Source of the DNA: an uncultured Desulfarculaceae bacterium
GTDB taxonomy: Bacteria; Desulfobacterota; Desulfocorpusculales; Desulfocorpusculum
DNA length: 64,000 nt
Direction: 5' to 3'
Assembly: GCA_964414345.1 (NCBI GenBank)
Contig: CAYPWF010000005.1
Span: 6,974 to 70,973, forward strand
Below are positions 7,263 through 62,010 of the stretch, piece by piece (position 1 is the first letter of the stretch; each line of letters opens with the position of its first letter). The notes under the pieces were generated by a model. It made no database searches and was not told the DNA's origin. It worked only from the letters and a program-made list of their open reading frames with translations. The position numbers were made by a program, and so were the translations under genes.

Positions 7263-7271
7263 TGTCCCGTC

Positions 7272-7739
7272 CTACTCGTATTGATTGAGCACTTCTGATG
7301 TTTTGGAGGGCGCCATGGCCCCGTAAGTTTTCCCGTCTATTTCCATGACCGGCCCCAGAGCGCAGCATCCCAGACAATTCACTGTTTCCAGGCTGAACTT
7401 AAGATTTGCATCGGTCTCTCCGGCCCTTATCCCGGTCAAACCCTCCACGGACTCCAGGACCCTCTGGGCCCCCCGCACATGACAAGCGGTACCCATGCAG
7501 ATATGGATCTCGTGACGGCCTTTGGGCACCAAACTGAAGGCCTTGTAAAAAGTGGCTATGTGCTGAATGCGGCTAAGGGGCACATCCAGCCTTTGGCTGA
7601 CCCTCTCCAAGGCCTCTTTGGGGAGCCAGTGGATTTCCCTTTGAATCTCCAGCAGCACCTGGATAAGAGAGCTGGCATCTCCGTCATACTTGTCTAGGAT
7701 TTCATCCAGTTTGCCCCTGTCCATGGCCTCCTCGTCCAT
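7272..7739 (-). CDS. bamG: BamG-like: NuoE/HoxE-type 2Fe-2S thioredoxin-like subunit
   Basis: CMGTACHVRGAQ...CLGCCALGPV, the canonical NuoE cysteine pattern; 155 aa. Confidence 0.85.
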   Translation of the reverse strand: MDEEAMDRGKLDEILDKYDGDASSLIQVLLEIQREIHWLPKEALERVSQRLDVPLSRIQHIATFYKAFSLVPKGRHEIHICMGTACHVRGAQRVLESVEGLTGIRAGETDANLKFSLETVNCLGCCALGPVMEIDGKTYGAMAPSKTSEVLNQYE

Positions 7740-7841
7740 ACGGTTTCTCTTTTAGTGATTTTTTTATCATCCAATCCGCATTGAATTTATGCCTGTCAGA
7801 CGGACCAAGCAATTTACCTCCCCGGTCCCCCAGGACTGCCT

Positions 7842-8606: not shown

Positions 8607-8610
8607 GATC

Positions 8611-11745: not shown

Positions 11746-11968
11746 ATCTCATCCCCTCATGGTTGAAAACCTAGGCCAGAACCATCCAAACCATACCATA
11801 CGCCAAAGTCCCTCATCGGGGGTTAAACCCCAGGCCCTTGTAAGAGCTTCACATTTTCCGACTCAAGCCCAAGCAGAACCGGAAATAAAGCTACCTATGA
11901 GCATGGACCATTTTTCATCTTGCCGTGACCCCCAAGAAGGCCCAAATCAGGCTCCTGAGCAACACAAT

Positions 11969-13129: not shown

Positions 13130-13240
13130 CTCCTTCCAAGGCAGGCTTCTCGATCAAGAAGCACAGGGGCTCCAGGCCCAAAGAAGCCTTGGCCCTTGTT
13201 GCGTGCCCCTCCAGGGTTCAAGGTCACTTCCCAGCCACCC

Positions 13241-13789
13241 TCATTCTTTCTTGGAAACTTTCTCACCCGAAACTCTAGCTATGGTCTCTATGACCTTCTC
13301 CATACCATATTTTTCCAAGAGGGCTTCAACACCCATCTCCAGATCCTCGGGCTTGGCATCTTCTTGCCCTTCCTCTTCCCTCTCCTCGTAGGTCAAGGCA
13401 TCCACCAAACACCACTTCACGCACATGGGCTCTTTGAGCTCCGGGTCGTCCTCGCACATGTCGCACTTGAGGGGCAGTCCTGAGTCGGGCTCCTTGAAAA
13501 GATCCCTGGAAGAGCAGGAGGCGTTACAGAAGTTGCATTCCCCGTAGTCCCTTCCGTCTATCACATAAGAATGTCTTCCGGCGCACTCGGCCTCGGCATG
13601 ATACCCGGCCCTGATAGGCAGAAAAACATTGTCCAGTTCGTCCCTAATCACCCTTATCCTGGATCTGGAAGGGTTGTTGCTGGCGTACTTTGGCGAGGAA
13701 TGAAAGGCTGAGCAGGCAACCTCGCAAGCCCTGCAGCCGTTACACTTGTCCACATCAACCTTTATGGATTTTATCTTCTTTTTTTGCAC
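13241..13789 (-). CDS. bamC: BamC-like: small poly-ferredoxin (4Fe-4S) electron-transfer subunit
   Basis: CNGCRACEVAC, CNFCNASC and CDMCEDDP...CVKWC cluster-binding motifs; 182 aa (~20 kDa); directly downstream of the AOR-family gene. Confidence 0.75.
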   Translation of the reverse strand: MQKKKIKSIKVDVDKCNGCRACEVACSAFHSSPKYASNNPSRSRIRVIRDELDNVFLPIRAGYHAEAECAGRHSYVIDGRDYGECNFCNASCSSRDLFKEPDSGLPLKCDMCEDDPELKEPMCVKWCLVDALTYEEREEEGQEDAKPEDLEMGVEALLEKYGMEKVIETIARVSGEKVSKKE

Positions 13790-13925
13790 CGTCGACTCCT
13801 TTCCCGCGGCCCGAGTCTTCCTACAAGGCCCAAAACTAATCTAAGAGTCTTCCCAGACTTCAGAACCAAGACCCCCTCACGCTGCTTCCAAACTCCTTAG
13901 ACCCAGCTTCCAAGTCTCACCCCGC

Positions 13926-15890
13926 CTACCCCTCCAGAATGCCCCTTTCCACAAAGTCCTGGTAAACATAATCCAAGCCCAGGTTCTGCAAGGTCTCCTT
14001 GGTGGGTATACCCTGGCTGTTCCAGCCCTTGTATCTGTAATATTCCTCCAAGAGCTGGTTCTCATATTCCGGGAATCTCTTTTTCCAGTGATCATCCGGG
14101 GGGCGCTCGTCCTGCCTTCTCATGCCTTTCCTTATGTTTATGGATCTGACCATGTTCCTGACCCTGCTGGCTGCGCTCCAGAGGGAATCCTCGTCCATGT
14201 CCAGACCTGTGGCATAAGAGATTAAGGGCGCCAGGTTGTGGATGTGGTATGGAGGCTTTAGAGGGAAGGAAGAAAGCCCCGCGCAAATCCCTGTGGAATC
14301 ATCTATATAGTGCATTATCTCCTGCCAGTCCACCAGGTCGCAGATCACATCCACTGAGGGATAGAAGGGAAACACCTTGCCCTCCTCACCCCACTCCAGG
14401 ATAAACTCCTTGAATTTCTCCTCTTTCCCGCTGGGCACATGCACCCAATCCCTCACGAACTCCTCCCTCACGTCCTTGGGCAGAGGGGTCTGGGGTATCT
14501 GGCCTTCGATCTGGGTGATATTTATCTTTTCCCCCGTGGACCACATGAGGAAGTAAATGGGATTCAACATGCCCAGTTTGATGGGGATCTGTTCATGCTT
14601 TTTTATGGTGTTGTGGTCAAAGGCTTCGGCCCCTTTTCCTATGCGGCGGGCCGCCCAATAAACCCCGTCGGCCAGCACATCCCCTATACCCTCTCTTCTC
14701 ACGATCCTGTCCAGGAGCCAGTTGAACTTGCCTTCGGTGTCGGAGGGCATGCCTTCTAGGTCCTTGTCGGTCAAAATCCCCGCCTCGTGAAGCTCCAGGG
14801 CAAAGGCCATGACCTGCGGGGTGGAGAACCCGTCGACCCCGTACTCCTGGGCACGGCCCGCTATTCTGAGGCCGAAGTCCAGATCGTCAGCCATGGCTGC
14901 CATCACGTAGGTCAGCTTGGAGAAGCACTTCATGGTGTAAGTGGGATAGCCTGGTATGGAGATGATGCCAGCGCAGCGCACCGGACAGTTGTAACAGCTT
15001 ATGAGCCTCTTTCTGGCCGACTCCAGAGTCTCGGTCCATTTTTTCTCCACGTCCTTGTTCCAGAAGTCCTTCCTCCTGTGCCTGGCATTCCCCCAAGCAA
15101 AGGCTATGGTGTGCCACTCCTCGTCGTGCACGGCCATTTCCTGGGGAGAGCCTATCCTGGCCAGAATCGGAGGTACACCCTTCAAGGGATTGTTAGCCCG
15201 GTGCTGTATGTATTCCAGTATCTGGTTGCATATCTCCATAAACTCGGCGGACTTGGCGATGTTAAGATCCTTGGTGCCCCGCACAGCTATGGCCTTTAGG
15301 TTCTTGTCCCCCATGATGGCCCCAAGGCCCAACCTGCTGGCGCTTCCCCTATGACTCTCTATGGAGGAGAAGAAAACCCTGTTCTCCCCAGCCAGGCCTA
15401 TGGCCATGACCTGGGCTTTGGGCTCCTTGAGCTCCTCCCTGAGCAGCTCTGCGGTCTCGTAGGTGCTCTTCCCCCTGAGGTGACTAGCATCCCTTATCTC
15501 CACCTTGTCGTTGTTTATCCAGATGTACACCAGCTCAGGCGACTTGCCCCTGATGACAACCTTGTCATACCCGGCGTACTTCAGCTCTGGAGCCCAAAAT
15601 CCACCCATCATGGAGTAACCCATGAGCTGGGTCTGGGGTGAAATGGAGGAAATTATGGTCCGGTTGGCTCCAGGGGCCGGGGTGCCACAGAGGAGCCCTG
15701 AGCTGAATATGAGGAGGTTTTCGGGGGAGAAAGGCTCTACCTCCGGAGGTACCCTGTCCCACAACATCTTGGAATTGGTTCCAAGCCCACCCAGGTAAAG
15801 CGGAGTAAGCCTCGGGTCGGTCTCCACCCTCTCTATGCTTCCTCTGGACAGATCAATTTCCAGGTTGAACCCTGTCTCGGCATACCTCAT
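13926..15890 (-). CDS. bamB: BamB-like: aldehyde:ferredoxin oxidoreductase (AOR)-family tungsten/molybdenum-pterin enzyme. Candidate active-site subunit of class II benzoyl-CoA reductase.
   Basis: 654 aa; AOR-family N-terminal domain (MRYAETGFNLEIDLSRGSIERVETDP...LGGLG...) and an AOR-type C-terminal domain; sits at the head of the bamBCDEFGHI-ordered operon. Confidence 0.8.
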   Translation of the reverse strand: MRYAETGFNLEIDLSRGSIERVETDPRLTPLYLGGLGTNSKMLWDRVPPEVEPFSPENLLIFSSGLLCGTPAPGANRTIISSISPQTQLMGYSMMGGFWAPELKYAGYDKVVIRGKSPELVYIWINNDKVEIRDASHLRGKSTYETAELLREELKEPKAQVMAIGLAGENRVFFSSIESHRGSASRLGLGAIMGDKNLKAIAVRGTKDLNIAKSAEFMEICNQILEYIQHRANNPLKGVPPILARIGSPQEMAVHDEEWHTIAFAWGNARHRRKDFWNKDVEKKWTETLESARKRLISCYNCPVRCAGIISIPGYPTYTMKCFSKLTYVMAAMADDLDFGLRIAGRAQEYGVDGFSTPQVMAFALELHEAGILTDKDLEGMPSDTEGKFNWLLDRIVRREGIGDVLADGVYWAARRIGKGAEAFDHNTIKKHEQIPIKLGMLNPIYFLMWSTGEKINITQIEGQIPQTPLPKDVREEFVRDWVHVPSGKEEKFKEFILEWGEEGKVFPFYPSVDVICDLVDWQEIMHYIDDSTGICAGLSSFPLKPPYHIHNLAPLISYATGLDMDEDSLWSAASRVRNMVRSINIRKGMRRQDERPPDDHWKKRFPEYENQLLEEYYRYKGWNSQGIPTKETLQNLGLDYVYQDFVERGILEG

Positions 15891-47723: not shown

Positions 47724-48854
47724 TTAGGCCTTTCTCTGCCTCAACCTGGGATTCAAGGCTTCTCTCAGTCCCTCTCCGAAGAGGTTGAAGGCCAGCACCA
47801 CCAGGAGCACTGCACATCCAGGAATAAGGGTCAGCCACGGGGCGTCGAACAGGAACCTTTTCCCGTCCGAAAGGATGTTCCCCCAGGTGGCATGGGGGGG
47901 CGGCACCCCAAAGCCCAAAAAACTCAAACCCGCCTCGGTTAAGATCGCCCCTGCTATGCCCAGGGTTGCCGAAACCAGCACAGGAGCTATTCCATTGGGC
48001 ACCAGATGGCGGAAGATGATCCTTGCGTCCGATAGGCCTAAGGCCTTTGCTGCGGCCACAAAGTCCTGCTCCCTCAAAGCCAGGAATTCAGCCCTCACGA
48101 ACCTGGCCGTGCCCATCCAGCTTGTAAGACCTATTACCGCCATGATGTTGTAGATGCTGGCCGGCAACAGGGCCACCACGGTCAGGATCAAAAAAAAGCT
48201 GGGAAAGCAAAGCATCACGTCCACAAGCCTCATTATGAGTGTGTCTACGGAAATGCAAGGCAGTGTCAGAGCACGGGCCAAGACTCCCTTTTTCCCTCCC
48301 GCCAGCCTGGCCCCCCAAAACAGCAAAACTGATGTAAGACCAAACGCCAGGCCCAGTCCATAGGCCCCTTTCCAGAGGGCCCCAAAAGCCCCAGCAAACC
48401 CCAGGCATCCCCCTAGAGAGCTCAAACCCAAGGCCTTTGGTCCGTAGTAACCGGCCAGACCTCCCAAGAAAATTCCGATTCCCACGGCTATTCCCACGGC
48501 CACAAATCCCACTGTCAGTGAAACCCATGCCCCCTGCATCATTCGCGAGAACACATCCCTGCCCAGGTCATCCGTGCCTAGAATATAGATTCCCAAAGGG
48601 GGAAGCTCGTGAGGTTTGAGAAGCTCCACCCTGGCCTTGGAAAGAGGAGGACGCAGCTTCTCGGGCAGCCGCACCAGGGAGGGGTCAAGCACGGGTCGCT
48701 CCCCAGTGGTGAGGCCTACCCCCAAGACAGCCACGCCTAAAAAAAGCAGGAATACCAAAAGACCGGCAACGGCCATCTTACGCCTTCGAAACTGCTTCCA
48801 GAAATCACTCCACAGGGATTCTGCCTGCTCCTTCTCCTGTTCCCCTACGTCCAC
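47724..48854 (-). CDS. ABC transporter permease (DppC/OppC-like) with a long N-terminal extension
   Basis: Polytopic, with a BPD-transporter EAA-like region (AAKALGLSDARIIFRHLVPN). Confidence 0.75.
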   Translation of the reverse strand: MDVGEQEKEQAESLWSDFWKQFRRRKMAVAGLLVFLLFLGVAVLGVGLTTGERPVLDPSLVRLPEKLRPPLSKARVELLKPHELPPLGIYILGTDDLGRDVFSRMMQGAWVSLTVGFVAVGIAVGIGIFLGGLAGYYGPKALGLSSLGGCLGFAGAFGALWKGAYGLGLAFGLTSVLLFWGARLAGGKKGVLARALTLPCISVDTLIMRLVDVMLCFPSFFLILTVVALLPASIYNIMAVIGLTSWMGTARFVRAEFLALREQDFVAAAKALGLSDARIIFRHLVPNGIAPVLVSATLGIAGAILTEAGLSFLGFGVPPPHATWGNILSDGKRFLFDAPWLTLIPGCAVLLVVLAFNLFGEGLREALNPRLRQRKA

Positions 48855-48882
48855 AGCCAGTCCCTCATGATTTTGTAGTCTT

Positions 48883-49842
48883 TCACAGCCTTATCCTAGG
48901 ATCCACCAACATGTACAGGACGTCCGAAACCAAGGTACCCAACAAAACAAGCACTGCCGAGATAAAGTTGAGAGTAAGTATCACGGGGTAATCCCTGGCC
49001 AAAATGGCCTCGTAGGCCATTCTACCCATGCCGGGCCAGGAGAAAATGGACTCTATGATGACCGAACCCCCTATAAGGCCTGGGATCATAAGCCCGAACA
49101 TGGTCACAAAGGGCAAAAGTGCGTTTCTTAAAGCATGCTTGTAATGCACCATGTCTGAGGGAAGTCCCTTGGCTTTGGCTGTGCGCACATAATCTTGGGA
49201 CTCCACCTCCAGCATCTGGCCTCTCACATACCTGGAAAGCTCTGCAATCCCCACAGTGGCCCCCAGCACCGAGGGTATGACCAGGTGCCAAAGCCGGTCC
49301 ATCCATCTGGCCAGGCCCTTTGTCTCTCCCAATCCGAAGGTTTCCATACCTATGACAGGAACCTGCAAAAGACTCACCACCCCGATGATAAGCAGGTAAG
49401 CGAAGAAAAAACCCGGGATGGAAATCAGGAAATAGGCCACGAAAGTCATCGTCCTGTCGAACCGCCCTCCCCTTCTCACAGCAGCAGTTATTCCCAAGGG
49501 AAAGGAGATGGTCCAGGTCAAAAGAGAGCCCACCAGAAAAAGAGGCAGGCTGTTGAGGAATCTCTCCCAGATCTTTCCCAGCACAGGTTGGTGATCTTTC
49601 CAAGATACCGTGTTTCCTCCCAGGAGATCCTGATAAAAAAGAAGGTATTGCACATGGAGGGGCTGGTCCAGGTGGAAGGCTTTGCGGAACCTCTCTACCA
49701 TCTCGGGTGTAAACTTGGGGTTTAGGGGATCCACCTGACTTGGCTCACCAGGAGCCATGTGCACCACTGCAAAGGAAATCACCGAGACGAAAAAGAGAGT
49801 CACTATCTTCTGTAGAAAGCTCCTAGCAAGAAACGAGATCAT
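48883..49842 (-). CDS. ABC transporter permease (DppB/OppB-like)
   Basis: 319 aa, polytopic; typical DppB N-terminus MISFLARSFLQKIVTLFFVSVISF; EAA-like YVRTAKAKGL. Confidence 0.8.
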   Translation of the reverse strand: MISFLARSFLQKIVTLFFVSVISFAVVHMAPGEPSQVDPLNPKFTPEMVERFRKAFHLDQPLHVQYLLFYQDLLGGNTVSWKDHQPVLGKIWERFLNSLPLFLVGSLLTWTISFPLGITAAVRRGGRFDRTMTFVAYFLISIPGFFFAYLLIIGVVSLLQVPVIGMETFGLGETKGLARWMDRLWHLVIPSVLGATVGIAELSRYVRGQMLEVESQDYVRTAKAKGLPSDMVHYKHALRNALLPFVTMFGLMIPGLIGGSVIIESIFSWPGMGRMAYEAILARDYPVILTLNFISAVLVLLGTLVSDVLYMLVDPRIRL

Positions 49843-49860
49843 GGGCCTATCCTGCCTCCC

Positions 49861-50062
49861 TCATCCTTCCTCCCCTTCTCCCTGCCCTTTCACCCTTCAC
49901 CCTTCACTCTTCATTCTTCACTCTTAATTCTTCATTCTTCACTCTTAATTCTTCATTCTTCACTCTCACTCTTCACTCTTCATTCTTCATTCTTCATTTC
50001 TCCCCCTCTCCCCTTCCCCGCGTCTCCGCCTCTCCGAGTCTCCCCCTCCCCCTCCTTCTCAT
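49861..50062. repeat. Pyrimidine-rich (plus strand) / purine-rich (mRNA strand) microsatellite made of CTTCA(C/T)T- and TTCATTC-type units, followed by a (CTCCC)n-like tract
   Basis: ...cacccttcacccttcactcttcattcttcactcttaattcttcattcttcactcttaattc...ctccccctctccccttccccgcgtctccgcctctccgag... Lies in the intergenic space between the SBP stop and the permease start. Confidence 0.85.
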
Positions 50063-52143
50063 TCCTTATCAAACACCGGGGCCTGCGGGAGTTTCACCCA
50101 TTTGTTGAAGTGAAAAGCGTAATTGCCTGTCCGGGTGGGCGTAATCCTCTTGTAAACAGGATTCCCTTCAGGGTCCTTATCCATTATGACTATTCTCCTG
50201 TCCAGAACCGCCGTCCAACGGGTAACGTACAGGAAGGTGTAGGGCTGCTGTGCTGCTATGATCTCGTGAAGGCGTCTGCAGAGCCTTACCTGTTCTTCAT
50301 GCCTGTATTCCTGTCTTATCCTCACTATGAGCTCATCCGCCTCTGGGTCCTGAAAGCCCACAAAGTTCAGCTGGTGGGGACCAGTCTGGCTGGAATGCCA
50401 TATCTGGTAAAGGTCCGGATCAATTCCCATGGACCAGCCCAACACAACCGCATCAAAATCCCTCTTGTTTATGCGCTCGTTGATGAAAACAGCCCACTCC
50501 ACCATGTCGGTGCGCACCTCTATACCCAACTGCCGCCAGGAGTCTTGGGCTATGGCCAGGATGGCTTTGCGAAGCTCATTCCCGCTATTGGTGATGAGGG
50601 TAAAGCGCATGGGCTGACCGTTTTTGGAAAGCCGGCCTGAGCCGTCCTTGCGCCAGCCCGCTTCTTCCAAGAGCCGCAGTGCCCCCTCTGGGTCATAAGC
50701 AAGAGCTGGAATCCCGGGGTCGTAGTAATCGGTTTGTTTTGGAAAGGGGCCAGTGATCCTCTCTGCCTGGCCGTGAAGCACGTAATCCAGGATCTTTTCC
50801 ACGTCTATTGCCATGCCCAGGGCTTTCCTGACCCGCACATCGTTGAAGGGCTCTCTTCTTAGGTTGTAGCCGATGTAGGTGTACCCGAAGGAGATGCCCG
50901 AGAAGGCCTGGAACCTGGGGTCATGCTGTAGCCTCTCCACCTGGTGAGGCTGCACCGCATAGGAGTCCAAGGTGCCTGCATAGAACTCCATTTCCTGGGT
51001 GACAAGGTCAGGCACAACCCTGAATATGTATTCCTGGTAATTGGGGGGACCCTCCCAGTAATGCTCGAAGCGGGCAAGGCTTACAAACTGGTCGGTCTTC
51101 CATTCTTTGAACTTGAACGGCCCGCAGCCTACCGGATTTCTGTTGAAATTGCTTTGTCTTATTCCGAAGTTGGATGGATCCATGGATCTTTTTTGAGCCT
51201 CTTTTCTCAAAGCCTCCTTGTTAAGAAGGTGCTGGGGCAGGATCCCCATGCTCCATGTACCTAAGGCCGGGGAGTAAAGCCTTTTATACACGACCCTCAC
51301 GGTTCTCTCGTCCGGGGTCTCCACTCTCAGGACCGGTTCGAAGTCAGAGATCCTAGGTGAGAGGTTGGCTGGATCCATTATGGCCTGATAAGTAAATTGC
51401 ACATCCTTGGAAGTTACAGGCACTCCATCATGAAAGAGCACCCCTTCTCTCATGTGGAAAACTATCACTGGGTTGTGCTCCACAGCTGGAAGAATCTCCC
51501 TGGCTATGTGAACCTGCGCCCCCGGATCCACCTCTTGCGGGAAAAGGCAATAATTCTCTGGCTTGAAGGAGTCGAAGTAGCCTTCCCCCAGAAGGGGCTC
51601 CAGCTTTAGAAAAAAATCCTGGTCCACCTCCTTGAGAGTGATCTTCACGAGGGGAGGCGCCTGGACCTGCACCTGTGCGGCCCGCGATTCCGGCTGGCCC
51701 GGCACCTTCACAGAGAGAAAGCGGGGTGGCTCTGCAATTAGCTCCACCCCGCTCACCTGAGGCCATCGGCCGAGCTCCTGCCTCAGCCAAGCCAGGATTT
51801 CTTCCTCTGAACCGCCTTGCATCCCAAGGGGAGGCTTGTAAAGCCTGAAGTAGGCTTCTTCGCTGATTTCCCAGTGGCTTGCCACACGTCCCCTGAATCT
51901 CAAATCCTCGTCCCTGTCCAAAAGCCCCTCAAAGATCAGGCCGGCCAGTTCCACGCTGGAGCTGTCTGCTGCCAGAATCGGATTCAGGAGGCTTGCATCC
52001 CCTATGGAGCCCGTGATGTACTGGGTAAGTCTTCTGGGATTCCCCCTTGTCTGCTCCTCGTAAGTGGGCACCCATAGCAGGGACTGAAGCAGCATCCCCA
52101 CAACCAGCAAAGGTGTCACCATCAGGATTTTTTTTACAAGCAT
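50059..52143 (-). CDS. ABC transporter substrate-binding protein, family 5 (DppA/OppA-like), unusually long at 694 aa
   Basis: Signal peptide MLVKKILMVTPLLVVGMLL; SBP_bac_5-like core; first gene of the Dpp/Opp operon. Confidence 0.7.
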   Translation of the reverse strand: MLVKKILMVTPLLVVGMLLQSLLWVPTYEEQTRGNPRRLTQYITGSIGDASLLNPILAADSSSVELAGLIFEGLLDRDEDLRFRGRVASHWEISEEAYFRLYKPPLGMQGGSEEEILAWLRQELGRWPQVSGVELIAEPPRFLSVKVPGQPESRAAQVQVQAPPLVKITLKEVDQDFFLKLEPLLGEGYFDSFKPENYCLFPQEVDPGAQVHIAREILPAVEHNPVIVFHMREGVLFHDGVPVTSKDVQFTYQAIMDPANLSPRISDFEPVLRVETPDERTVRVVYKRLYSPALGTWSMGILPQHLLNKEALRKEAQKRSMDPSNFGIRQSNFNRNPVGCGPFKFKEWKTDQFVSLARFEHYWEGPPNYQEYIFRVVPDLVTQEMEFYAGTLDSYAVQPHQVERLQHDPRFQAFSGISFGYTYIGYNLRREPFNDVRVRKALGMAIDVEKILDYVLHGQAERITGPFPKQTDYYDPGIPALAYDPEGALRLLEEAGWRKDGSGRLSKNGQPMRFTLITNSGNELRKAILAIAQDSWRQLGIEVRTDMVEWAVFINERINKRDFDAVVLGWSMGIDPDLYQIWHSSQTGPHQLNFVGFQDPEADELIVRIRQEYRHEEQVRLCRRLHEIIAAQQPYTFLYVTRWTAVLDRRIVIMDKDPEGNPVYKRITPTRTGNYAFHFNKWVKLPQAPVFDKE

Positions 52144-52355: not shown

Positions 52356-53645
52356 TCACATAAGGCTCCTGGCCACCCCTACCGTGAGTTCTCCCAACAT
52401 GTGAGTATAAGAACCCAGTTCATTGTCATACCAGCCGTACACCACCACCTGGGTGATGGGGACCTCAAGAATCCCCTCTCGAATCCCTTTGAGAGAGTCT
52501 TGAGCCACAGCACAAAGCCTTGCCAGATTCACCCGGAGATTGGCCGTGCGGGTGTGAGTTTCCTTTCCCTCTATGATGGCCGCCGCAGCCGTGCCTATGA
52601 CATCCGCCGAGACGTTCTGTTTCTCCGTGTATGAAAGGTAGGGGCTCAGGTAGCCTTCCGCAGCCTTTTTGTAAATGGAGTTGATCAAGTCCCTCCTGAT
52701 GGGGGTTGAGGGATCCTCCTCTTGGATGTTTAAGACCAAAATCACCAAGGAGCCTGTGCTGGTGGGGATGCGCACCGACTCTGCCATGAAGCCCACTTCC
52801 CTCATCTCCGGGATAACCAATCTCAAAGCCTCTGCCGCCCCTGTTGTAGTAAGTATGATGTTGTTGAAGGTGCTCCTGTTTTTGCGCAGATCCTTGGCTT
52901 TGGGGTCAGGCAGCCTGTCCAGCACTTCCTGGCTGCCGGTTGCTGCATGCACCGTCACCATGGAGGCGGTCAAAAGAGGTCCTTGTCCAAAATGATCCAA
53001 GATGGGCCTCATCATGAAAGCCAGGCAGGTGGTAGTGCACGAGGCTGCAGAGATGATCCGGTGGCGGCCGGGTAGGTAATCATGCTCATTTATACCCTGT
53101 ATGGCGGTCACTGCATCCTCGGGCATAGAAGCGGACTTGTCCTTGATTTTGAAAGGTGCGGAAAGAATAACCTTCTGTGCTCCTGCCTCCAGATGTGCCC
53201 TCAAGCTTCCTTTGGGGGCATCCCCAGGGGCCGTTGGGTCGGTGAAGGCCCCTGTACAGTCCACCACCAACGAAACGTTCTGTTCCCTCCAAGGGATCTC
53301 CCTGGGATTGCGGCTCTGGCGAAGCACCTTCACCTTGACACCATTCACCTTCATGCTGGATCGGTCCTCATCCAGTTCCTCTATGACGCGCCCCCCCTTG
53401 TATCCAAACAAGAACCTATCCAGGCTTCCATACGTGCTGTCTCTGAGCACATAATCGGCTATGTCCTCCAGCCCCTTCCCCACATCCCTACCTACGTTCA
53501 CCACCAGCTCCTGGAAGGAGCGCCTGGCAACATGATGCCATAAGGTGAGCTTCCCTATCCTGCCCAGCCCGTTTATGCCTAGAGGCATGGGCAGCGTCGA
53601 CTCCTCCGAGCACAGAAAAGGATGATCCTTTGCTGTGAGACTCAT
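52356..53645 (-). CDS. Divergent glyceraldehyde-3-phosphate-dehydrogenase-family paralog (429 aa)
   Basis: N-terminal LGINGLGRIGK (compare INGFGRIGR) and active-site-like SAASCTTTCLAF (compare [12 protein letters not shown]); about 95 aa longer than canonical GAPDH; immediately downstream of the 1422-aa gene. Confidence 0.6.
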   Translation of the reverse strand: MSLTAKDHPFLCSEESTLPMPLGINGLGRIGKLTLWHHVARRSFQELVVNVGRDVGKGLEDIADYVLRDSTYGSLDRFLFGYKGGRVIEELDEDRSSMKVNGVKVKVLRQSRNPREIPWREQNVSLVVDCTGAFTDPTAPGDAPKGSLRAHLEAGAQKVILSAPFKIKDKSASMPEDAVTAIQGINEHDYLPGRHRIISAASCTTTCLAFMMRPILDHFGQGPLLTASMVTVHAATGSQEVLDRLPDPKAKDLRKNRSTFNNIILTTTGAAEALRLVIPEMREVGFMAESVRIPTSTGSLVILVLNIQEEDPSTPIRRDLINSIYKKAAEGYLSPYLSYTEKQNVSADVIGTAAAAIIEGKETHTRTANLRVNLARLCAVAQDSLKGIREGILEVPITQVVVYGWYDNELGSYTHMLGELTVGVARSLM

Positions 53646-53649
53646 GTTC

Positions 53650-56600
53650 TCACCTCCCCATGTGCATTACTTCCCCTGCCGCCCTCAGGGTCTTGTGCTC
53701 CACAGGATGGCGTCCCAAGTAGATGGAGCCGCCCCTGCCGTCCATGCTCAGAAAGTCCCCCTCTCGAATCACCACATCATGGATCCGACAAGGACCTCTT
53801 TCGCTCAGCAAGCGCAGCCCTCCGGTGCCCACAACACAGGTCTTCCCAAGCCTCAGAGCCACTATGGCAGCATGGGAGGTCTGGCCCCCCTTGGCGGTGA
53901 GAAGCCCGTCGCTGAGCGATATCTCCTTGATGTCGTCCGGCACAGTATCCGAACGTATAAGAATCAAAGGTGTCTCAGGCTCCTTCTCCCTCCATCTCTG
54001 GATCTCCTCCAGGGTGAAGACCGCCCTTCCCGACAAAGCGCCGCCGCTCACCCCAGTCCCTTTTCCCAGGTAATGCTCATGAAGATCGCTAGAGGCCACG
54101 AAGACCGGCATTGTCTCCGTGCGCCTCATGGTGACCATGTCCCTTGTCTGCAAAACATAAAGACTGTCCGGATCAGGTCCTTCGAAAGTAAACTCTATTT
54201 CCTGGGGGTTCCATCCCTTGTCGTAAACCAGCATCTTGCAGACCCCCTCCAGAGCCCTGTAAACCCCTGGGAACTCCTCTTCCAGGGTAGGCTCCCCATG
54301 ACGGCCAGACTCCTCCCTCTGCTCCCTGGAGATGGGGTAGGTTGTCACTAGGCCGGCCACTATGTCCTCGCCCTGGTTCATGGCCGTGTAGTCCCCCCAA
54401 AGCACCACACGACGCATGCGCTTGGCTGGATTTGCAGTAAATAGGACTCCGCTTCCAGAGTTGGGACCAATATTTCCAAAGACCATTGCCTGCACGATCA
54501 CGGCAGTGCCCCAGTCATCGGAGATCCCCATTATTTCCCTGTAATCCCTTGCCTTGCTTGAGTCCCAGGAGTAGATGACTCTATGAATCGCTGTCTCCAA
54601 CTGTTCCCAAGGATCCTCCTCGATCCTGATGTGGCGTTCCTCCAGGGCTCTCTTATAGGCCAGGGCCATTTCCCGCATCTGCTCTCCGGTGAACTGGCGC
54701 TTCTTTTCAACAGCGTGTCTGGCCTTCCATTCCCTCATGATCTCGTTGAAGGCCTCTCTCTCCATTCCGAAAGACATTCCCCAAGATTGCAGGAAGCGCC
54801 GGTAGTTGTCCCATGCAAACCAGGGGTTCCCAGAGGAGGCGGCCAAGCCCTGGGCCACCTCTTCATTGATGCCCACATTGAGCAGGGTGTCCATCATTCC
54901 GGGCATGGATATGGTGGCCCCGCTTCGCACGGACACCAGAAGAGGCCTATGGGGATCCCCGAAACGGTTCCCTGTGGCCTCCTCCATTTCCCTAATCTCC
55001 GAGCTTATCTGATCCAGAAAGTCCTCGTGGGCCTGCGGAAACCTCAGCACTATGTGGTGGCAGCGGGAAACTTCCGTGGTAATTATGAAGCCTGGTGGGA
55101 CCTTCACACCCGCCTCTGCCAAGACCACCAGATTGTATCCTTTGGAACCCAGGTGGATGGAGTCCCGGGTGAGCTCTTTGGCCTGGTGGATGGGGGAGAC
55201 CACCTTGTCCGGATCGTAGGTCATGAGCAGATCCAGATCCTCCTCCGATAGGGTCTCTTTCTGAAGGGCTAGGGTCTGATGTATCTTGGTCAGAAAATTG
55301 TCCAGATATTGGAGTCCAAAGGTGCTGGAGACCAGGTCCCTCAGGAAGCGCTCCGAGATGCGGTGCACGAAGGCCTCATCGTCCTGGTCCGCGGCGTATC
55401 CCACGTAAGTGGGAAGGATGTGTTTTCGGCCCAAAGAGCTTATGACCATTGTCAGGTTGTCTTTGTGCACGTCCGCATAGTAAACATTGAGGATGTCTTT
55501 TACGCCTTCAGAAAGGCCCCTCAGGATGTCCAAGTACTGGGTGTAAGTGAATCTTCTGATCTCCAGCGACTTCTCCAAGAGTTTGAACTGGGCGTCCAGG
55601 CGCTGGGAGGATATGCCGTCTATCTGCATGGCCCGGATAAAAAGCCTGATGCAACGCACGATTCTGAAGAAAACGGCACGGGTTATGAGGGAGAGGTTTA
55701 CGGAGCCTATGAGCCGTTCAAAATAGAGATTTGCCAGGTTCTCCAGCCTGAAAGAAAGCCCCAAGGCATCGAACTTTCTCTCGTGGTAGCGCCCGTACAT
55801 GGAAGGAATGTCTGCAGCTATGTGCCTCTTATGGTAAATGTCTTCGGTGACCTCATAGGTCTCAGGGGAGAGAATGACCTCTTTTAGCTTCTCCAGATAA
55901 CTTAGAAGCACATCCAGACATTCTTCGGGATCATCACGATCCAGGACTGCCTGTAGCTTCTCCAGACCCGTAAATCCGTGTGCAGCCGCCTGGGAGAGGT
56001 GATACCTGATTTCCTGGAAACCAAGGTAGTATTTTTGGTAAACCAGCCTGTACATTCTGACCAGGAGACGCACTCTTTCCCGCTCAATATCGCTGACCCC
56101 CTGAACTTTGGAAACCGCCCGGCTGAGTTCTTCCTCGGGGAGATCCAGCAGATCCTTCACTCCTTTGAGGTTGTAATCCCGAAAAACTTGGCTCATCACC
56201 TTGTGGGGTTCCAAAACCAGTGGGCTTTCAGGATCCAACTGTTGGAAGACTTCCTCGGGGAGAAAATGGGAAAGCCCTGACTTGTCCAAGCTGATCCAAA
56301 ATCGGAAAATCTCCTCCACGAATTCCACGATTAGGTTGCTGCTCTCCACATGACTTTGCTTTCTGAGAAAGTGGATCAGGGGATCGCGCCTTCTGTGGAT
56401 TTCGTCCATGTCAGTGGAGACGTCCCTTAACAGGCCCTCTGCACCTATCTCGTTGAAGAAAGCCGGGATCAACTTGGTGAGCTGTTTGACCAAGTTGTAA
56501 AGGGGAGCTATGTCGCTATTCAGCAGCTTGCTTATGTCCTTCTGGAAGAGGTCCGTGTCTCTTATGCAGGTGCCTGCCAGTTTCAGATTTATGATAAGGG

Positions 56601-57918
56601 CCGAGAGCAAAGTGGTGCACCACTTAGGCTGAATACAAATCAGGTCCAGCCAGATGCGGATGTTCAGTAGGTGGTTGGGGTTGCAAAGCCATTGCCATTC
56701 TGTGTCAACCCCTGTCACCTCCGGAGGCTGGAACCCGAAGCGCACCACCTGCTCCAAAAATACCTCCACCAGCCTGGACTGCCCCTTCTTAAAGACCTCC
56801 TGACCTATGGCGTTAATGCACTGAAGGGCAGTACGGGGATAGTGCACCACATTTTCTTTTAGCAAAGAAAAGGTCCTGAGCAGGAAGGACTCCAGCCTCT
56901 GGGGTAGCTCGCTCCTGATCATCTCTGTTAGAGAGCGCTGGATGTCCCTCAAGGTCTCCTCGTAGATCTCAGAGAGCCTAGAGGTGTTCATTATCTTAAA
57001 GAGGAGCAGAATCTTTCCGTCCCTGAGCAGATCCTCACCTGCCCCTTTGGAGGTAAGATTCAGGGCTGACATGCGCTCTGGGAGTTCACGGTACATCCGA
57101 ACCAGTTCCAGATGGCCGGGCATCTGCAAGAGCTTTTTTGCTGTCTCCACCGGGGTGAAGCCTCCATCCAAGCCCTCCAGGAACTTGAGGTGGCCCTTCA
57201 ACCTGTGGTGGGAAAGTTCCGCAAGCAGATCGCTCAACGGGCCGGAAGGGGGCTCCTGTGCGAACTCCTTTCTAAACCAGGCCACAGGATCTTCCTCTTG
57301 CAGCCATTCCAGATAAGTTATGTGCAACAGCTCCTTTAGGAGCTCATTGAGAGGGACCAAGCCTGCTCCGTCGGACTCCATGGAGAGAAGATTCAAACCC
57401 ATTCTCTTAAGGGGATGGTAGCTCCTGGCCAATAGCTCTTTTTGAGGCTGGGGAAGCCCTTTTAGCCGCTCCAGAGCCTCCCCCAGGACTTCAATATAGG
57501 GCTTTGGATCCTCTGAGAGGCATGTTTGAACCACCTTCTCCATGTAACTCAGGGCACACTCCAAGGCCTGGGACTGGATCTCCTTGCGCTTGGCAAGGCT
57601 CATGGCCTCCAGGAAGACCTCCAAGATAAGGCCCACCGCCTCATGCCCCTTGGGGTGGCGCCTGTAAGAGTCCAGGTTCTTGAGGGCAAAACCTCTCAAC
57701 TCCGAAAGTATCAGCTTCCAGTTGCGGAATGGGTGATGAAGCTCGAAGAGCAAGGAGTCCACGGTCTTGCGAAGACCTCTGTATTCAGAGACCACCTCCT
57801 GGAGCACCCTGAACCTGGGATGGATGTGCACGCTGGAGACCGCCGTCTCCTCAAGGTTACGGCGAAGCGCCTCTGATTCTTCCAGGAGTGCCCTTGAATC
57901 CATACCATCCGAGCTCAT
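53650..57918 (-). CDS. Large multidomain phosphotransferase-like protein: novel ~880-aa N-terminal region, then a PEP-synthase/PPDK-type nucleotide-binding domain, then a PEP-utilizer phosphohistidine swivel domain
   Basis: PPDK_N-like HLGSKGYNLVVLAEAGVKVPPGFIITTE around aa 900; C-terminal mobile domain KGGQTSHAAIVALRLGKTCVVGTGG. No PEP/pyruvate-binding TIM barrel follows. Confidence 0.6.
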   Translation of the reverse strand: MSSDGMDSRALLEESEALRRNLEETAVSSVHIHPRFRVLQEVVSEYRGLRKTVDSLLFELHHPFRNWKLILSELRGFALKNLDSYRRHPKGHEAVGLILEVFLEAMSLAKRKEIQSQALECALSYMEKVVQTCLSEDPKPYIEVLGEALERLKGLPQPQKELLARSYHPLKRMGLNLLSMESDGAGLVPLNELLKELLHITYLEWLQEEDPVAWFRKEFAQEPPSGPLSDLLAELSHHRLKGHLKFLEGLDGGFTPVETAKKLLQMPGHLELVRMYRELPERMSALNLTSKGAGEDLLRDGKILLLFKIMNTSRLSEIYEETLRDIQRSLTEMIRSELPQRLESFLLRTFSLLKENVVHYPRTALQCINAIGQEVFKKGQSRLVEVFLEQVVRFGFQPPEVTGVDTEWQWLCNPNHLLNIRIWLDLICIQPKWCTTLLSALIINLKLAGTCIRDTDLFQKDISKLLNSDIAPLYNLVKQLTKLIPAFFNEIGAEGLLRDVSTDMDEIHRRRDPLIHFLRKQSHVESSNLIVEFVEEIFRFWISLDKSGLSHFLPEEVFQQLDPESPLVLEPHKVMSQVFRDYNLKGVKDLLDLPEEELSRAVSKVQGVSDIERERVRLLVRMYRLVYQKYYLGFQEIRYHLSQAAAHGFTGLEKLQAVLDRDDPEECLDVLLSYLEKLKEVILSPETYEVTEDIYHKRHIAADIPSMYGRYHERKFDALGLSFRLENLANLYFERLIGSVNLSLITRAVFFRIVRCIRLFIRAMQIDGISSQRLDAQFKLLEKSLEIRRFTYTQYLDILRGLSEGVKDILNVYYADVHKDNLTMVISSLGRKHILPTYVGYAADQDDEAFVHRISERFLRDLVSSTFGLQYLDNFLTKIHQTLALQKETLSEEDLDLLMTYDPDKVVSPIHQAKELTRDSIHLGSKGYNLVVLAEAGVKVPPGFIITTEVSRCHHIVLRFPQAHEDFLDQISSEIREMEEATGNRFGDPHRPLLVSVRSGATISMPGMMDTLLNVGINEEVAQGLAASSGNPWFAWDNYRRFLQSWGMSFGMEREAFNEIMREWKARHAVEKKRQFTGEQMREMALAYKRALEERHIRIEEDPWEQLETAIHRVIYSWDSSKARDYREIMGISDDWGTAVIVQAMVFGNIGPNSGSGVLFTANPAKRMRRVVLWGDYTAMNQGEDIVAGLVTTYPISREQREESGRHGEPTLEEEFPGVYRALEGVCKMLVYDKGWNPQEIEFTFEGPDPDSLYVLQTRDMVTMRRTETMPVFVASSDLHEHYLGKGTGVSGGALSGRAVFTLEEIQRWREKEPETPLILIRSDTVPDDIKEISLSDGLLTAKGGQTSHAAIVALRLGKTCVVGTGGLRLLSERGPCRIHDVVIREGDFLSMDGRGGSIYLGRHPVEHKTLRAAGEVMHMGR

Positions 57919-57972: not shown

Positions 57973-59019
<1,047 letters not shown>

Positions 59020-59254: not shown

Positions 59255-60463
59255 ATGAGATTCCGAAGCATCGACCAGATGGAACTTCGGGGAAAACGCG
59301 TGCTTGTCCGGGTGGACTTCAATGTGCCTTTGGACTCAGAGGGTAAAATAACCGATGACACCCGCATCAAGAGCGCCCTTCCCACCCTCCAACATGCCTT
59401 AAGAAAAGGGGCCAGGGTGATTTTGGCCTCTCATCTGGGGAGGCCCAAAGGGAAGCCCGACCCCAAATATTCCATGGCTCCCTGTGCCAAACGCTTGGCC
59501 GAGCTCCTTAATCGAAGGGTGGATCTGGCTCCTAACTGTGTGGGTCCTCAGGTGGAAGAAATGGTGGCAAAAATGGCCGAAGGGGATCTACTGATGTTGG
59601 AAAACCTGCGATTCCACCCCGAAGAGGAGGCCAATGATGAGGGCTTCGCAAAGGCTTTGGCAAGACTGGCCGATGTGTTCATAAACGACGGGTTTGCAGT
59701 AGCGCACAGGGCCAACGCCTCGGTGGAGGCCATCACCCGCTTCTGCCCGGAATGTGGCGCAGGGCTTCTCATGAAAAAGGAGTTGGAGTCCTTCTCGAGG
59801 GCCTTGGAAAACCCGGCCAGACCCTTGGTGGCCATATTGGGGGGCGGGAAGGTGGCCGACAAGCTGGGGGCTGTGCGCAGGCTCCTAACTGTGGCGGACA
59901 AGGTCATCATCGGGGGGGCTCTGGCTTACACTTTTCTGAAGGCCGGCGGCCTGGACACTGGGGCTTCTTTGGTGGAGACAGATCTGCTCTCCCATGCCGG
60001 CCAGCTCATGAGAAGAGCCAGAAAAAAGGGGCTCAAACTCTATCTACCTGTGGACTGCGTAATGGCCCAGGAACGCTCTGCCCAGGCCAAGCTCCTCATT
60101 AGGCCTGTTCAGGAAATGCCGGCAGGTTGGATGGGGCTTGATATAGGACCTGCATCAGTGGCTCTTTTTAAAGAGGTCTTGGAGGATGCCAAGACCATAA
60201 TCTGGAACGGTCCCATGGGGGTTTACGAGTTGGAACCCTTCAGCAAAGGCACCAGAGAGCTGGTCAAGGCAGTGGCAAGAAGCAATGCCTTCAGTATCCT
60301 GGGCGGAGGAGACCTGGACGCGGCTGTGCACCAATCCGGCCAGACCAAGGGTATCTCTTACATATCCACGGGAGGTGGGGCCTTTGTGGAGCTTGTGGAG
60401 GGGAGAAAACTCCCAGGCGTGGAAGCTCTCATCCGCTGCTCCAAAACTAAAAGGAGGCGTTGA
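59255..60463 (+). CDS. pgk: Phosphoglycerate kinase
   Basis: LRGKRVLVRVDFNVPL; GGGAFVELVEGRKLPGVEAL; 402 aa. Confidence 0.9.
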   Translation: MRFRSIDQMELRGKRVLVRVDFNVPLDSEGKITDDTRIKSALPTLQHALRKGARVILASHLGRPKGKPDPKYSMAPCAKRLAELLNRRVDLAPNCVGPQVEEMVAKMAEGDLLMLENLRFHPEEEANDEGFAKALARLADVFINDGFAVAHRANASVEAITRFCPECGAGLLMKKELESFSRALENPARPLVAILGGGKVADKLGAVRRLLTVADKVIIGGALAYTFLKAGGLDTGASLVETDLLSHAGQLMRRARKKGLKLYLPVDCVMAQERSAQAKLLIRPVQEMPAGWMGLDIGPASVALFKEVLEDAKTIIWNGPMGVYELEPFSKGTRELVKAVARSNAFSILGGGDLDAAVHQSGQTKGISYISTGGGAFVELVEGRKLPGVEALIRCSKTKRRR

Positions 60464-60466
60464 TCC

Positions 60467-61228
60467 ATGCGAAAAGCGCTTGTGGCCGGTAACTGGAAGA
60501 TGTACATGACCCGCATCCAGGCAATAGAACTGCTCAAGGGGCTCAGGCAGGAGCTGGGAGGCAAGACTTACCAAACCCAGGTGGTCTTGGCTCCTCCTTT
60601 CACAGCCTTGGAAACGGTGGCAAGGGAGATTCAAGGCTCCGGATGGGGCCTGGCTGCACAAAACGGGTTCTGGGAAAAGGAGGGGGCTTTCACAGGGGAG
60701 ATCTCCTTCCCCATGTTGGCCGAGCTTGGATGTTCCATGGTCATCTTGGGACATTCGGAGAGGAGACATTTCTTCGGGGAGAAAGATGAGTGGGTGCGCA
60801 GGAAGCTGGAGGCAGCCTTGGCCTTCGGTCTAACCCCCATACTCTGTGTAGGGGAGACCCTGGAACAAAGGGATCAGGCACAGACCCTTGAGGTTGTAAG
60901 AAGGCAGCTCCAAGAGGCCTTGGGGGGGCTGCAGGAGGAGGGGGCCAAGGAGTTCGTGGTGGCTTATGAGCCTGTTTGGGCCATAGGCACGGGTAGGACG
61001 GCTACTCCTTCCCAAGCCCAGGAAGTGCATGCCATGATAAGGCAATGGCTAGGGGAACGCTTCTCCTTAGCGCGGGCCGATGCAACCAGGATCCTCTACG
61101 GGGGGAGCGTAAAACCCGAGAACATAGCTGACCTCATGGCATGCCCCGACATAGACGGCGCGCTGGTGGGAGGTGCGAGTCTCAAGGCGGATTCCTTTGC
61201 AGCAATAGTCAGGCTTGGGAAAGACTGA
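60467..61228 (+). CDS. tpiA: Triosephosphate isomerase
   Basis: LVAGNWKM; AYEPVWAIGTGRTAT; IVLGHSERR. Confidence 0.9.
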   Translation: MRKALVAGNWKMYMTRIQAIELLKGLRQELGGKTYQTQVVLAPPFTALETVAREIQGSGWGLAAQNGFWEKEGAFTGEISFPMLAELGCSMVILGHSERRHFFGEKDEWVRRKLEAALAFGLTPILCVGETLEQRDQAQTLEVVRRQLQEALGGLQEEGAKEFVVAYEPVWAIGTGRTATPSQAQEVHAMIRQWLGERFSLARADATRILYGGSVKPENIADLMACPDIDGALVGGASLKADSFAAIVRLGKD

Positions 61229-61483
61229 GTCTTTCCTCTCGGGATAGAACAGGGTTCACTCCCTGGGCAAATTCCCAAGAGACTTGAAGGCAGATCTCAA
61301 AGGCCTCCAATACTATCTGGCGCGGTTGGACGCATGGGTGTAAAATTCATAGGAGTGTGCGCTCAAGGCCTTGATATTTGTGTTGCGGGAAGCCGCAATT
61401 AGAAAAGAGGCCGGCCGGAGAGGCCGGATTTCAACCCCTTAAAACCAGTAGGCCTGGAAAAGCCAAAGGGCCGGGGAGGATAG

Positions 61484-61822
61484 ATGTTCACCGCTGTAGC
61501 CATCATCCATGTCCTTGTGTGTGTTTTTCTTATCTTGGTCGTGCTCCTGCAGACCGGTAAGGGATCCGACATCGGGGCTGTCTTTGGGGGCGGGGGGTCC
61601 CAGGCCCTTTTTGGAAGCGCAGGCCCTGGCACCTTTTTGGGAAAGCTCACGGCTGTCATGGCTGGTATCTTCATGCTGACTTCAGTCCTTATAGCAGGGA
61701 ATTTCTTTGCCCGGCCTTCCAAGTCAGTGATAGAAGAGCCGCCTCCTGCGGCCCAGGCGCCTGCCCAGGAAACTCAGGAGAACAGAGCACCGGCCGTACC
61801 TGAGAAAGCTCCAGAAAAATAA
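61484..61822 (+). CDS. secG: Preprotein translocase subunit SecG
   Basis: VLLQTGKGSDIGAVFGGGGSQALFGSAG is the canonical SecG core. Confidence 0.8.
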   Translation: MFTAVAIIHVLVCVFLILVVLLQTGKGSDIGAVFGGGGSQALFGSAGPGTFLGKLTAVMAGIFMLTSVLIAGNFFARPSKSVIEEPPPAAQAPAQETQENRAPAVPEKAPEK

Positions 61823-61923: not shown

Positions 61924-62010
61924 GCCGAAGTGGTGGAAACTGGTAGACACGCCATCTTGAGGGGGTGGTGGGCTACGCCCGTAGGGGTTCGAGTCCCCTC
62001 TTCGGCACCA
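61924..62010 (+). tRNA. tRNA-Leu (anticodon GAG), long variable arm, CCA encoded
   Basis: GCCGAAG/CTTCGGC acceptor stem; anticodon arm CCATC-TTGAGGG-GGTGG; T-arm GGGGTTCGAGTCCCC; aligns with bacterial tRNA-Leu architecture. Confidence 0.85.

Follow-up and report, generated by a model that had tools for sequence, protein, structure and literature searches.

Lower glycolysis and gluconeogenesis are, to our knowledge, regarded as fully catalogued in bacteria, and the question raised by one gene cluster of an uncultured Desulfarculaceae bacterium is whether this part of metabolism holds a further enzyme or regulator. The cluster lies in a stretch of 64,000 nucleotides (assembly GCA_964414345.1, contig CAYPWF010000005.1, positions 6,974 to 70,973), hereafter the window, in which a large gene for a protein of 1422 residues (big; 53650..57918, minus strand) is flanked on the same strand by a canonical type I gap of 334 residues (57973..58977, minus strand), 54 nt upstream, and by a gene for a long GAPDH-family paralog of 429 residues (GL; 52356..53645, minus strand). 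A preliminary description made from the DNA letters had reported these three open reading frames (ORFs), which the ORF list bears out, and had read them as a dikinase-type phosphotransferase coupled to a dehydrogenase, an overall interpretation that the sequence comparisons below support. Big could represent a step, or a point of control, in central carbon metabolism that has so far not been characterised.

The genes are tightly arranged: GL starts 4 nt past the big stop codon (not 5 nt, as first given), its Shine-Dalgarno sequence GGAGGTGA overlaps that stop codon, and the start of big is itself preceded by a plausible Shine-Dalgarno sequence. Big is not a chance reading frame, because its N-terminal domain alone, used as query, retrieves more than 1100 homologous proteins from 90%-identity clusters.

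A PPDK-type kinase module that has lost its barrel

Judged from sequence and model, big is very probably a phosphohistidine swivel phosphotransferase derived from pyruvate, orthophosphate dikinase (PPDK), with the barrel gone and a novel all-alpha domain of ~900 residues at the opposite end. Its kinase module (aa ~906-1407) consists of a PPDK-type ATP-grasp nucleotide-binding domain (54124..55203, minus strand; aa ~906-1265; PF01326) with the motifs GSKG, SVRSGA, MPGMMDT, QGEDIVAG, EIEFTFE and LQTRD, followed by a phosphohistidine swivel (PEP-utilizers mobile) domain (53698..54072, minus strand; aa ~1283-1407; PF00391). Pfam recognises the former as PPDK_N with an E-value of 4.5e-34 and the latter with an E-value of 2e-16, and the stretches quoted in the preliminary description are all present, namely GSKGYNLVVLAEAGVKVPPGFIITTE (aa 924-949) and GGQTSHAAIVALRLGKTCVVG (aa 1344-1364) in big and SCTTTCLAF in the 429-residue protein. 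A residue-level alignment with PPDK shows GSKG, SVRSGA, MPGMMDT, QGEDIVAG, EIEFT, LQTRD and GGQTSHAA all to be kept; the last of these (aa 1344-1351; window 53866-53889) contains the catalytic His1349, which is invariant in 65 diverse family sequences.

Comparison with solved structures aligned aa 923-1407 of big with PPDK residues 18-512 (E about 1e-82), the nucleotide-binding domain with residues 18-337 (E about 1e-60) and the swivel domain with the central domain (residues 381-513, TSH included), and in a structure-based alignment with PPDK (EC 2.7.9.1; 1KBL/1DIK) both domains are ~31-35% identical, the nucleotide-site motifs and TSH being kept. Unlike PPDK, big has no C-terminal TIM barrel, carries its swivel domain C-terminally on one linker instead of two, and has a helical domain of 900 residues ahead of the module. 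The loss of the PEP/pyruvate barrel, already noted in the preliminary description, is evident both from Pfam, which does not find PEP-utilizers_C (PF02896) in big, and from the alignments to structures in the Protein Data Bank (PDB), in which big ends where residue ~512 of the ~873 of PPDK would be. An AlphaFold2 (AF2) model of aa 300-1422 (pLDDT 90.0, pTM 0.79) was compared with known structures by Foldseek, and its kinase module superposed on the C. symbiosum PPDK structures 1kbl and 1dik at 2.9-3.1 A, with some 540 columns aligned (1kbl, 2.9 A over 541 columns). The best-fitting conformer is the one with the His domain facing the nucleotide site, whereas barrel-facing conformers fit at 10-15 A, and rifampin phosphotransferase (RPH) and the other three-domain dikinases are matched only weakly. 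The aligned motifs and the superposition therefore suggest a complete, apparently functional PPDK-type unit of ATP-grasp domain and swivelling His, and we are confident that the C-terminal 500 residues, as aligned, keep every motif for ATP binding and for phosphate carriage on His1349.

The NCBIfam scores point in the same direction. PPDK scores highest (TIGR01828, 398.8 bits; cut-off 843.45, not reached), then come the barrel-less 'PRK05878' PPDK family (NF004531, 320.7 bits; cut-off 456, not reached), PEP synthase (NF005057, 76.7 bits, cut-off 598; TIGR01418, 69.6 bits, cut-off 739.75) and RPH (NF041857, 37.6 bits; cut-off 999). The initial assignment of the ATP-grasp/His module to the class of PEP synthase (water dikinases) or RPH is therefore to be narrowed to the PPDK type (398.8 versus 69.6 and 37.6 bits). 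As described for such dikinases (PMC4844700), they follow a three-domain logic in which an ATP-grasp domain and a swivelling His carrier are joined to a separate acceptor domain that sets specificity. Big shares this logic with RPH, PEP synthase, glucan water dikinase (GWD) and HpeI-type kinases, but it differs from these enzymes in its marginal sequence similarity (RPH 37.6 bits, PEP synthase 69.6-76.7 bits), its unrelated acceptor domain and its domain order; GWD, for example, has N-terminal carbohydrate-binding modules and a His domain that precedes the nucleotide-binding domain, whereas big has no match to a carbohydrate-binding module and the reverse order. The principle of a swivelling-His dikinase is known, but none of the libraries searched contains the acceptor domain of big, its architecture or its partnership with GAPDH.

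An N-terminal helical domain with invariant charged residues

The N-terminal domain (55204..57918, minus strand; aa 1-~905) is all-alpha, solenoid-like and belongs to no known family. In Pfam searches of residues 1-900 at E<=10 the best match was noise (Sld7_C, E 0.089), NCBIfam and PADLOC matched nothing in the N-terminal region, and searches of PDB sequences were empty both with phmmer and with a family profile at E<=10. The ~880 residues that the preliminary description had called free of recognisable motifs thus have no match in Pfam, NCBIfam or the PDB, and no rifampin- or glucan-binding domain was found among them, so that the domain most probably represents a previously undescribed protein family. 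AlphaFold modelling, proposed with that description, gave a confident all-alpha, solenoid-like fold for aa 1-920 (AF2; pLDDT 81.7, pTM 0.71), whose only structural matches are generic helical repeats and alpha-solenoid scaffolds.

The domain is conserved as strongly as the kinase part, with 48-55% identity between orders. Conserved motifs are DTDLFQ (aa 454-459), NEIGAEG (aa 489-495), HFLRKQSHVESSN (aa 516-528) and KRHIAADIPSMYGRY (aa 697-711), and the family consensus includes HFLRKQxHxES and KRHIAxxIPSxYGxY. In 65 diverse members H416, D454, E494, R498, D505, D512, R519, K520, H523, K629, Y630, K697, R698, H699, S706, R860 and D873 are invariant, the charged residues being unchanged down to members at 28% identity. 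The loops that bear these motifs are poorly predicted by AF2 in the isolated domain and become confident once the kinase module is included, the KRH...YGRY segment folding as a beta-hairpin in the model of aa 300-1422. We read this conservation as the sign of a functional site, whether for acceptor binding, catalysis or docking, and the composition of the invariant residues, largely basic and acidic, is in all likelihood what would be expected of a site for an anionic or phosphorylated ligand or of one at which the phosphohistidine docks.

A widespread family with a GAPDH-family partner

Relatives of big occur in at least 587 GTDB species genomes, and at the level of 50% identity the N-terminal query retrieves 584 clusters, of which 205 reach E<=1e-30. 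Of the homologues from 90%-identity clusters, 120 were listed, and almost all of these are about 1410-1450 residues long; the architecture is constant among full-length members (about 1335-1540 residues) down to 28% identity. Named members come from Thermodesulfobacteriota, Cloacimonetes and Actinomycetota, the distant ones being from Candidatus Cloacimonetes and Miltoncostaeaceae (Actinomycetota), and the hosts include the cultured Desulfobulbus elongatus, D. rhabdoformis, Thermodesulfatator atlanticus and Dissulfurirhabdus thermomarina as well as Candidatus Electrothrix. The closest genome among the matches listed is a Desulfarculaceae metagenome-assembled genome (MAG) with 88% identity over the N-terminal domain. 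In public databases the members carry unspecific or incorrect names ('PEP/pyruvate-binding domain-containing protein', 'pyruvate, orthophosphate dikinase', 'phosphoenolpyruvate synthase'), and full-text literature searches found nothing on the family or on a phosphoglycerate dikinase, VadK (see below) being the sole precedent. In one long-read MAG, gap and big (L043:8927-9905 and the 882-residue protein P0065) look split by frameshifts, probably as a result of assembly errors and not as real split genes.

To describe the gene neighbourhood, we used 80 loci of close relatives from genomes and 80 loci of distant relatives from metagenomes (the latter set seeded with a member at 28% identity), together with individual look-ups; L numbers denote such loci. 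Unsupervised clustering of the flanking ORFs revealed a single dominant neighbour, the GAPDH family, which is found in 105 of ~160 loci, lying a median of 57 nt away; no other cluster exceeds 23 loci, and the runner-up is restricted to one lineage. Adjacency was counted in the 93 loci (49 close, 44 distant) whose sequence extends 1.5 kb or more to either side of big, and a GAPDH-family gene adjoins big in 61 of them. GL lies directly downstream in 41 of the 93, that is, in 10 close and 31 distant relatives; gap is directly upstream on the same strand in 26 close and 4 distant relatives and divergent upstream in none and 4, respectively, and 23 close and 9 distant loci have no GAPDH-family gene adjacent. 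In several of the loci lacking an adjacent GAPDH-family gene, gap is still only one gene off. Thus, the conserved partner of big is a GAPDH-family enzyme, usually GL, with canonical gap in most close-relative loci, which are largely from Desulfobulbia. The pairing of the two window genes, put forward as a test in the preliminary description, accordingly recurs in other genomes, with the amendment that the partner may be any GAPDH-family enzyme and in close relatives is often canonical gap.

In the 55 loci where GL follows big, stop and start are separated by a median of 53 nt; in 21 of these loci the separation does not exceed 30 nt, and in 6 the genes overlap. Abutting genes in the order gap-big-GL-pgk-tpi-secG are found in D. 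thermomarina (L087) and in a second genome (L170), the order big-GL-gap-pgk-tpi-secG occurs at the locus of a member with 36% identity (L172), and in three distant members (L173, L084 and L086) the big-GL pair stands alone with no other glycolytic gene nearby; the L173 protein shares a 90%-identity cluster with a named Cloacimonetes sequence. Conversely, three GL-type genes of 431-433 residues with 60-64% identity to the window GL, all from one sample, have no large kinase gene within 7-10 kb (L088:10001-11302, L169:7001-8302, L171:7001-8296), and therefore GL is not obligatorily linked to big.

The other conserved neighbours that were considered (glgA, aroC, aroK, nrdD and genes for a P-type ATPase, DUF554 and His_Phos_1 proteins) are each restricted to single lineages and were set aside as general partners. 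Among close-relative, mostly Desulfobulbia loci there is a string aroK - aroC - glgA (starch-synthase type) - gap - big, its first three genes being seen in 13, 18 and 23 loci, respectively (examples at L037:7136-8728, L067:6946-8028 and L026:5162-5731); the linkage to glycogen synthase (glgA) hints at a tie to polyglucose storage. In Candidatus Electrothrix (L057:9290-9895 on the plus strand, L058 and L073), big is immediately preceded, 54-64 nt away and in the same orientation, by a gene for a His_Phos_1 protein of 202-231 residues. The His_Phos_1 superfamily covers both phosphoglycerate mutase and the phosphohistidine phosphatase SixA, and this neighbour in cable bacteria fits either a phosphoglycerate substrate or a phosphatase acting on the phosphohistidine of big. 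In two distant genomes (L087:1-4368, L172:214-5917), the big/GL/gap cluster comes right after rpoN-hpf-ptsN(EIIA-Ntr)-rapZ-EIIA(man) and a GNAT acetyltransferase gene, i.e. a regulatory cluster of the nitrogen phosphotransferase system, which may reflect no more than an inherited gene order.

GL retains the catalytic machinery of GAPDH

The preliminary description had called the 429-residue ORF a divergent GAPDH paralog beside a canonical gap, and the family models agree: on TIGR01534 gap scores 448.5 bits, above the cut-off of 367.2, and contains SCTTNC and TVHSYT, whereas GL, at 328.9 bits, is below the cut-off of this and of every other GAPDH and Epd equivalog. GL is ~35% identical to Thermus GAPDH and shares with type I GAPDH and the paralogs GapB, Epd and ArsJ-associated GAPDH the fold, the catalytic Cys and His and the residues of the Ps and Pi sites; its Cys203, within SCTTTCLAF, and His233 are the equivalents of Cys149 and His176. 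Across the GL family, Cys149, His176, Thr179, Arg194, Arg197, Thr208, Gly209, Arg231 and Asn313 are kept in 59-61 of 61 sequences. These retained catalytic and phosphate-site residues make GL look like an active enzyme of the acyl-phosphate/phosphorylated-C3 type.

GL differs from type I GAPDH in its length (about 410-435 residues across the family, as opposed to the canonical ~330-340), in about five insertions, in an altered Asp32 region with an invariant Arg, in a Lys at the position of Arg195 (51 of 61 sequences) and in its genomic tie to big. One insertion of ~30 residues (aa 364-399) opens with the GL-only motif HTRT (aa 364-367; 59-60 of 61 sequences) and could be a docking or phospho-acceptor element. 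The position of Asp32 is occupied by Val in the HMMER alignment and by Glu or Asp in 49 of 61 sequences in the MAFFT alignment, with the invariant Arg adjacent. An NADP preference of GL, considered when Asp32 was read as Gly-Arg, was withdrawn since the MAFFT family alignment puts Glu/Asp in this column.

A candidate 3-phosphoglycerate dikinase and its alternatives

How might a barrel-less PPDK derivative and a GAPDH-family enzyme work together? As a tentative answer, we propose that big and GL together make up a so far overlooked pair of enzymes in central carbon metabolism, in which big is a 3-phosphoglycerate, phosphate (or water) dikinase with a new type of acceptor domain. On this proposal, ATP would pyrophosphorylate His1349 on the nucleotide-binding domain, the gamma-phosphate would be passed to orthophosphate (as in PPDK) or to water, leaving the phosphorylated His, and the His domain would then swivel onto the N-terminal domain, where the carboxylate of 3-phosphoglycerate would be phosphorylated to 1,3-bisphosphoglycerate. 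The co-translated GL, or gap where GL is absent, would reduce 1,3-bisphosphoglycerate to glyceraldehyde-3-phosphate, such that the two enzymes would constitute a bypass of phosphoglycerate kinase (PGK) that is driven by ATP-to-AMP conversion and favours gluconeogenesis; in the reverse direction, ATP would be made from AMP and pyrophosphate, conserving energy. That big supplies GL in this manner with 1,3-bisphosphoglycerate made from 3-phosphoglycerate is conceivable rather than likely. Succinyl-CoA synthetase and ATP-citrate lyase provide a precedent for passing phosphate from phosphohistidine to a carboxylate, and both AMP and pyrophosphate arise in sulfate activation and from acyl-CoA synthetases. 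Textbook free energies lead to an estimate that coupling to the conversion of ATP to AMP and pyrophosphate makes activation of 3-phosphoglycerate ~15 kJ/mol more favourable than with PGK.

The proposal draws on the complete PPDK-type module, the invariant charged N-terminal residues and the constant architecture, as well as on the GAPDH family being the sole conserved neighbour, the big-GL pair lying inside or beside gap-pgk-tpi clusters and GL keeping the acyl-phosphate machinery. Several observations weigh against it. Pgk occurs in the same clusters as big, so that there is no obvious need for a bypass of PGK; in roughly a third of loci big lacks a directly adjoining GAPDH-family gene, and GL is also met on its own (L088, L169, L171). 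As modelled, the helical solenoid of 900 residues looks less like a pocket for a small molecule than like a scaffold for binding proteins, and in the model of aa 300-1422 AF2 places the His domain on the nucleotide-binding domain and not on the N-terminal domain. In addition, Asp32 pairs differently in the two alignments, which makes the cofactor and the preferred direction of GL ambiguous, and the literature search yielded nothing bearing on the substrate of big.

As the main rival reading, big could be a regulatory protein (di)kinase, its module autophosphorylating on His1349 and its solenoid binding GAPDH, GL or another glycolytic enzyme and controlling flux at the triose-phosphate node by phosphotransfer or phosphorylation-dependent binding, a possibility that we regard as open to considerable doubt. 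Its model is VadK (Rv1127c) of M. tuberculosis, a barrel-less PPDK derivative that undergoes Mg-ATP-dependent autophosphorylation on the equivalent catalytic His, binds methylcitrate-cycle enzymes and has a metabolic role other than making PEP (PMC13400623); truncated PPDKs of this type (NF004531) are found in pathogenic and other Actinomycetes. Like VadK, big is barrel-less with the nucleotide-binding and His domains kept, and its C-terminal module reaches 320.7 bits on NF004531, although this is under the cut-off of 456; VadK, however, is a stand-alone protein of about 490 residues (family ~490-534) compared to the 1422 of big with its N-terminal domain, is linked to methylcitrate-cycle enzymes and not to GAPDH, and has a different taxonomic range. 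The N-terminal fold, matching only alpha-solenoid scaffolds that are typically protein-binding, would suit a regulator, and the family-specific surface insertions of GL with the invariant HTRT could be its docking or acceptor site. Set against this, the position of big between gap and pgk in tight operons, with its stop abutting the GL start, suggests expression similar to that of GL and not the low level of a regulator; moreover, the N-terminal domain is conserved in the manner of an enzyme (48-55% between orders, with an invariant charged set), and phosphorylation of a protein substrate has not been shown even for VadK (PMC13400623). An alternative that keeps big an enzyme, and one that we consider unlikely, is a different small-molecule acceptor of the pathway, such as glycerate, glyceraldehyde, a tetrose or other sugar phosphate, or the synthesis of 2,3-bisphosphoglycerate, with GL acting on the product or precursor. 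The same module and invariant residues of an anion-binding type would serve such a reaction equally, the phosphoglycerate-mutase-type His_Phos_1 gene directly upstream of big in Candidatus Electrothrix would agree with it, and since GL scores below the type I GAPDH cut-off (328.9 versus 367.2 bits) and carries insertions, its substrate may differ from glyceraldehyde-3-phosphate. Yet GL retains both phosphate-site residue sets of true GAPDH, and an ordinary gap is the partner where GL is absent.

That big truly forms PEP, its helical domain replacing the pyruvate/PEP barrel and its clustering with gap, pgk and tpi merely reflecting shared gluconeogenesis, is improbable: PPDK is indeed the closest family (TIGR01828, 398.8 bits), members are publicly annotated as 'pyruvate, orthophosphate dikinase' and the operon context is lower glycolysis/gluconeogenesis, but the barrel that is absent holds all the pyruvate/PEP and Mg ligands, the score is far under the equivalog cut-off of 843, the annotations are automatic, and a shared pathway would leave unexplained the abutting GAPDH-paralog pairs that have no other glycolytic genes (L084, L086, L173). 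Least credible, to the point that we would be surprised to see it borne out, is a glucan/glycogen dikinase of the GWD kind or a xenobiotic/antibiotic phosphotransferase of the RPH kind. GWD and RPH do use the same principle of ATP-grasp and swivelling His, as is well established, and glgA precedes gap-big in 23 loci (close relatives, mostly Desulfobulbia, account for 21); however, the glgA link is confined to one lineage and the GAPDH link spans phyla, neither a carbohydrate-binding module nor a RIF-binding domain was found in big, the order of nucleotide-binding then His domain is unlike that of GWD, the RPH model gives 37.6 bits against a cut-off of 999, and PADLOC returned no defence-system match.

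Returning to the proposed 3-phosphoglycerate dikinase, big would, if it is an enzyme of this sort, define a new reaction or bypass at the node of 3-phosphoglycerate, 1,3-bisphosphoglycerate and glyceraldehyde-3-phosphate. Anaerobes that live close to what thermodynamics allows (sulfate reducers, sulfur disproportionators, syntrophs and Cloacimonadota) would then gain either a direction-specific alternative to PGK driven by ATP-to-AMP conversion or, in reverse, a means of regaining ATP from AMP and pyrophosphate. If big is a regulator instead, the PPDK-derived kinases of metabolic control exemplified by VadK would no longer be confined to Actinomycetes but would include a far larger and more ancient family. 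In both cases the N-terminal domain constitutes a new protein family with marked invariant residues. The gene concerned, found in at least 587 species of several phyla, is placed in some genomes between gap and pgk and in most next to a gene of the GAPDH family; because it is routinely misannotated as PPDK or PEP synthase, metabolic reconstructions are distorted for sulfate reducers, cable bacteria, syntrophs and digester organisms.

Surroundings of the locus in the window

In the window, pgk (59255-60463), tpiA (60467-61228) and a secG-like ORF (61484-61822) together span 59255..61822 on the plus strand, divergent from gap-big-GL, whereas in other genomes they are downstream of GL within the same operon; the three names derive from the translations and from tblastn matches to the PF00162, PF00121 and PF03840 genes of L087, L170 and L172. 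Rfam found no family at gathering score anywhere in the window, and promoter and terminator scans gave background level only. Base composition is even along the window and the genes around big are ordinary anaerobe chromosome content. An origin of big from a mobile element or from a defence or resistance system was considered and rejected, given the chromosomal core-metabolic context, the uniform composition and the lack of PADLOC matches.

Downstream of GL, beyond a gap of 212 nt, are three long ORFs (47724-52143, minus strand) whose translations read as an Opp/Dpp-type ABC transporter, with a substrate-binding protein of 694 residues and two permeases; they probably form a transcription unit separate from GL. 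On the other side of the cluster, a tRNA-Leu(GAG) gene follows the secG-like ORF (61924-62010, plus strand). Farther away, a run of redox genes (5346-15890, minus strand) encodes a NuoF-like flavoprotein with 2Fe-2S and 4Fe-4S domains (5346-7262), an HdrA-like FAD/Fe-S protein of 1044 residues (8611-11745) and a tungsten-type aldehyde:ferredoxin oxidoreductase (13926-15890), which together look like a module of the electron-bifurcation type.

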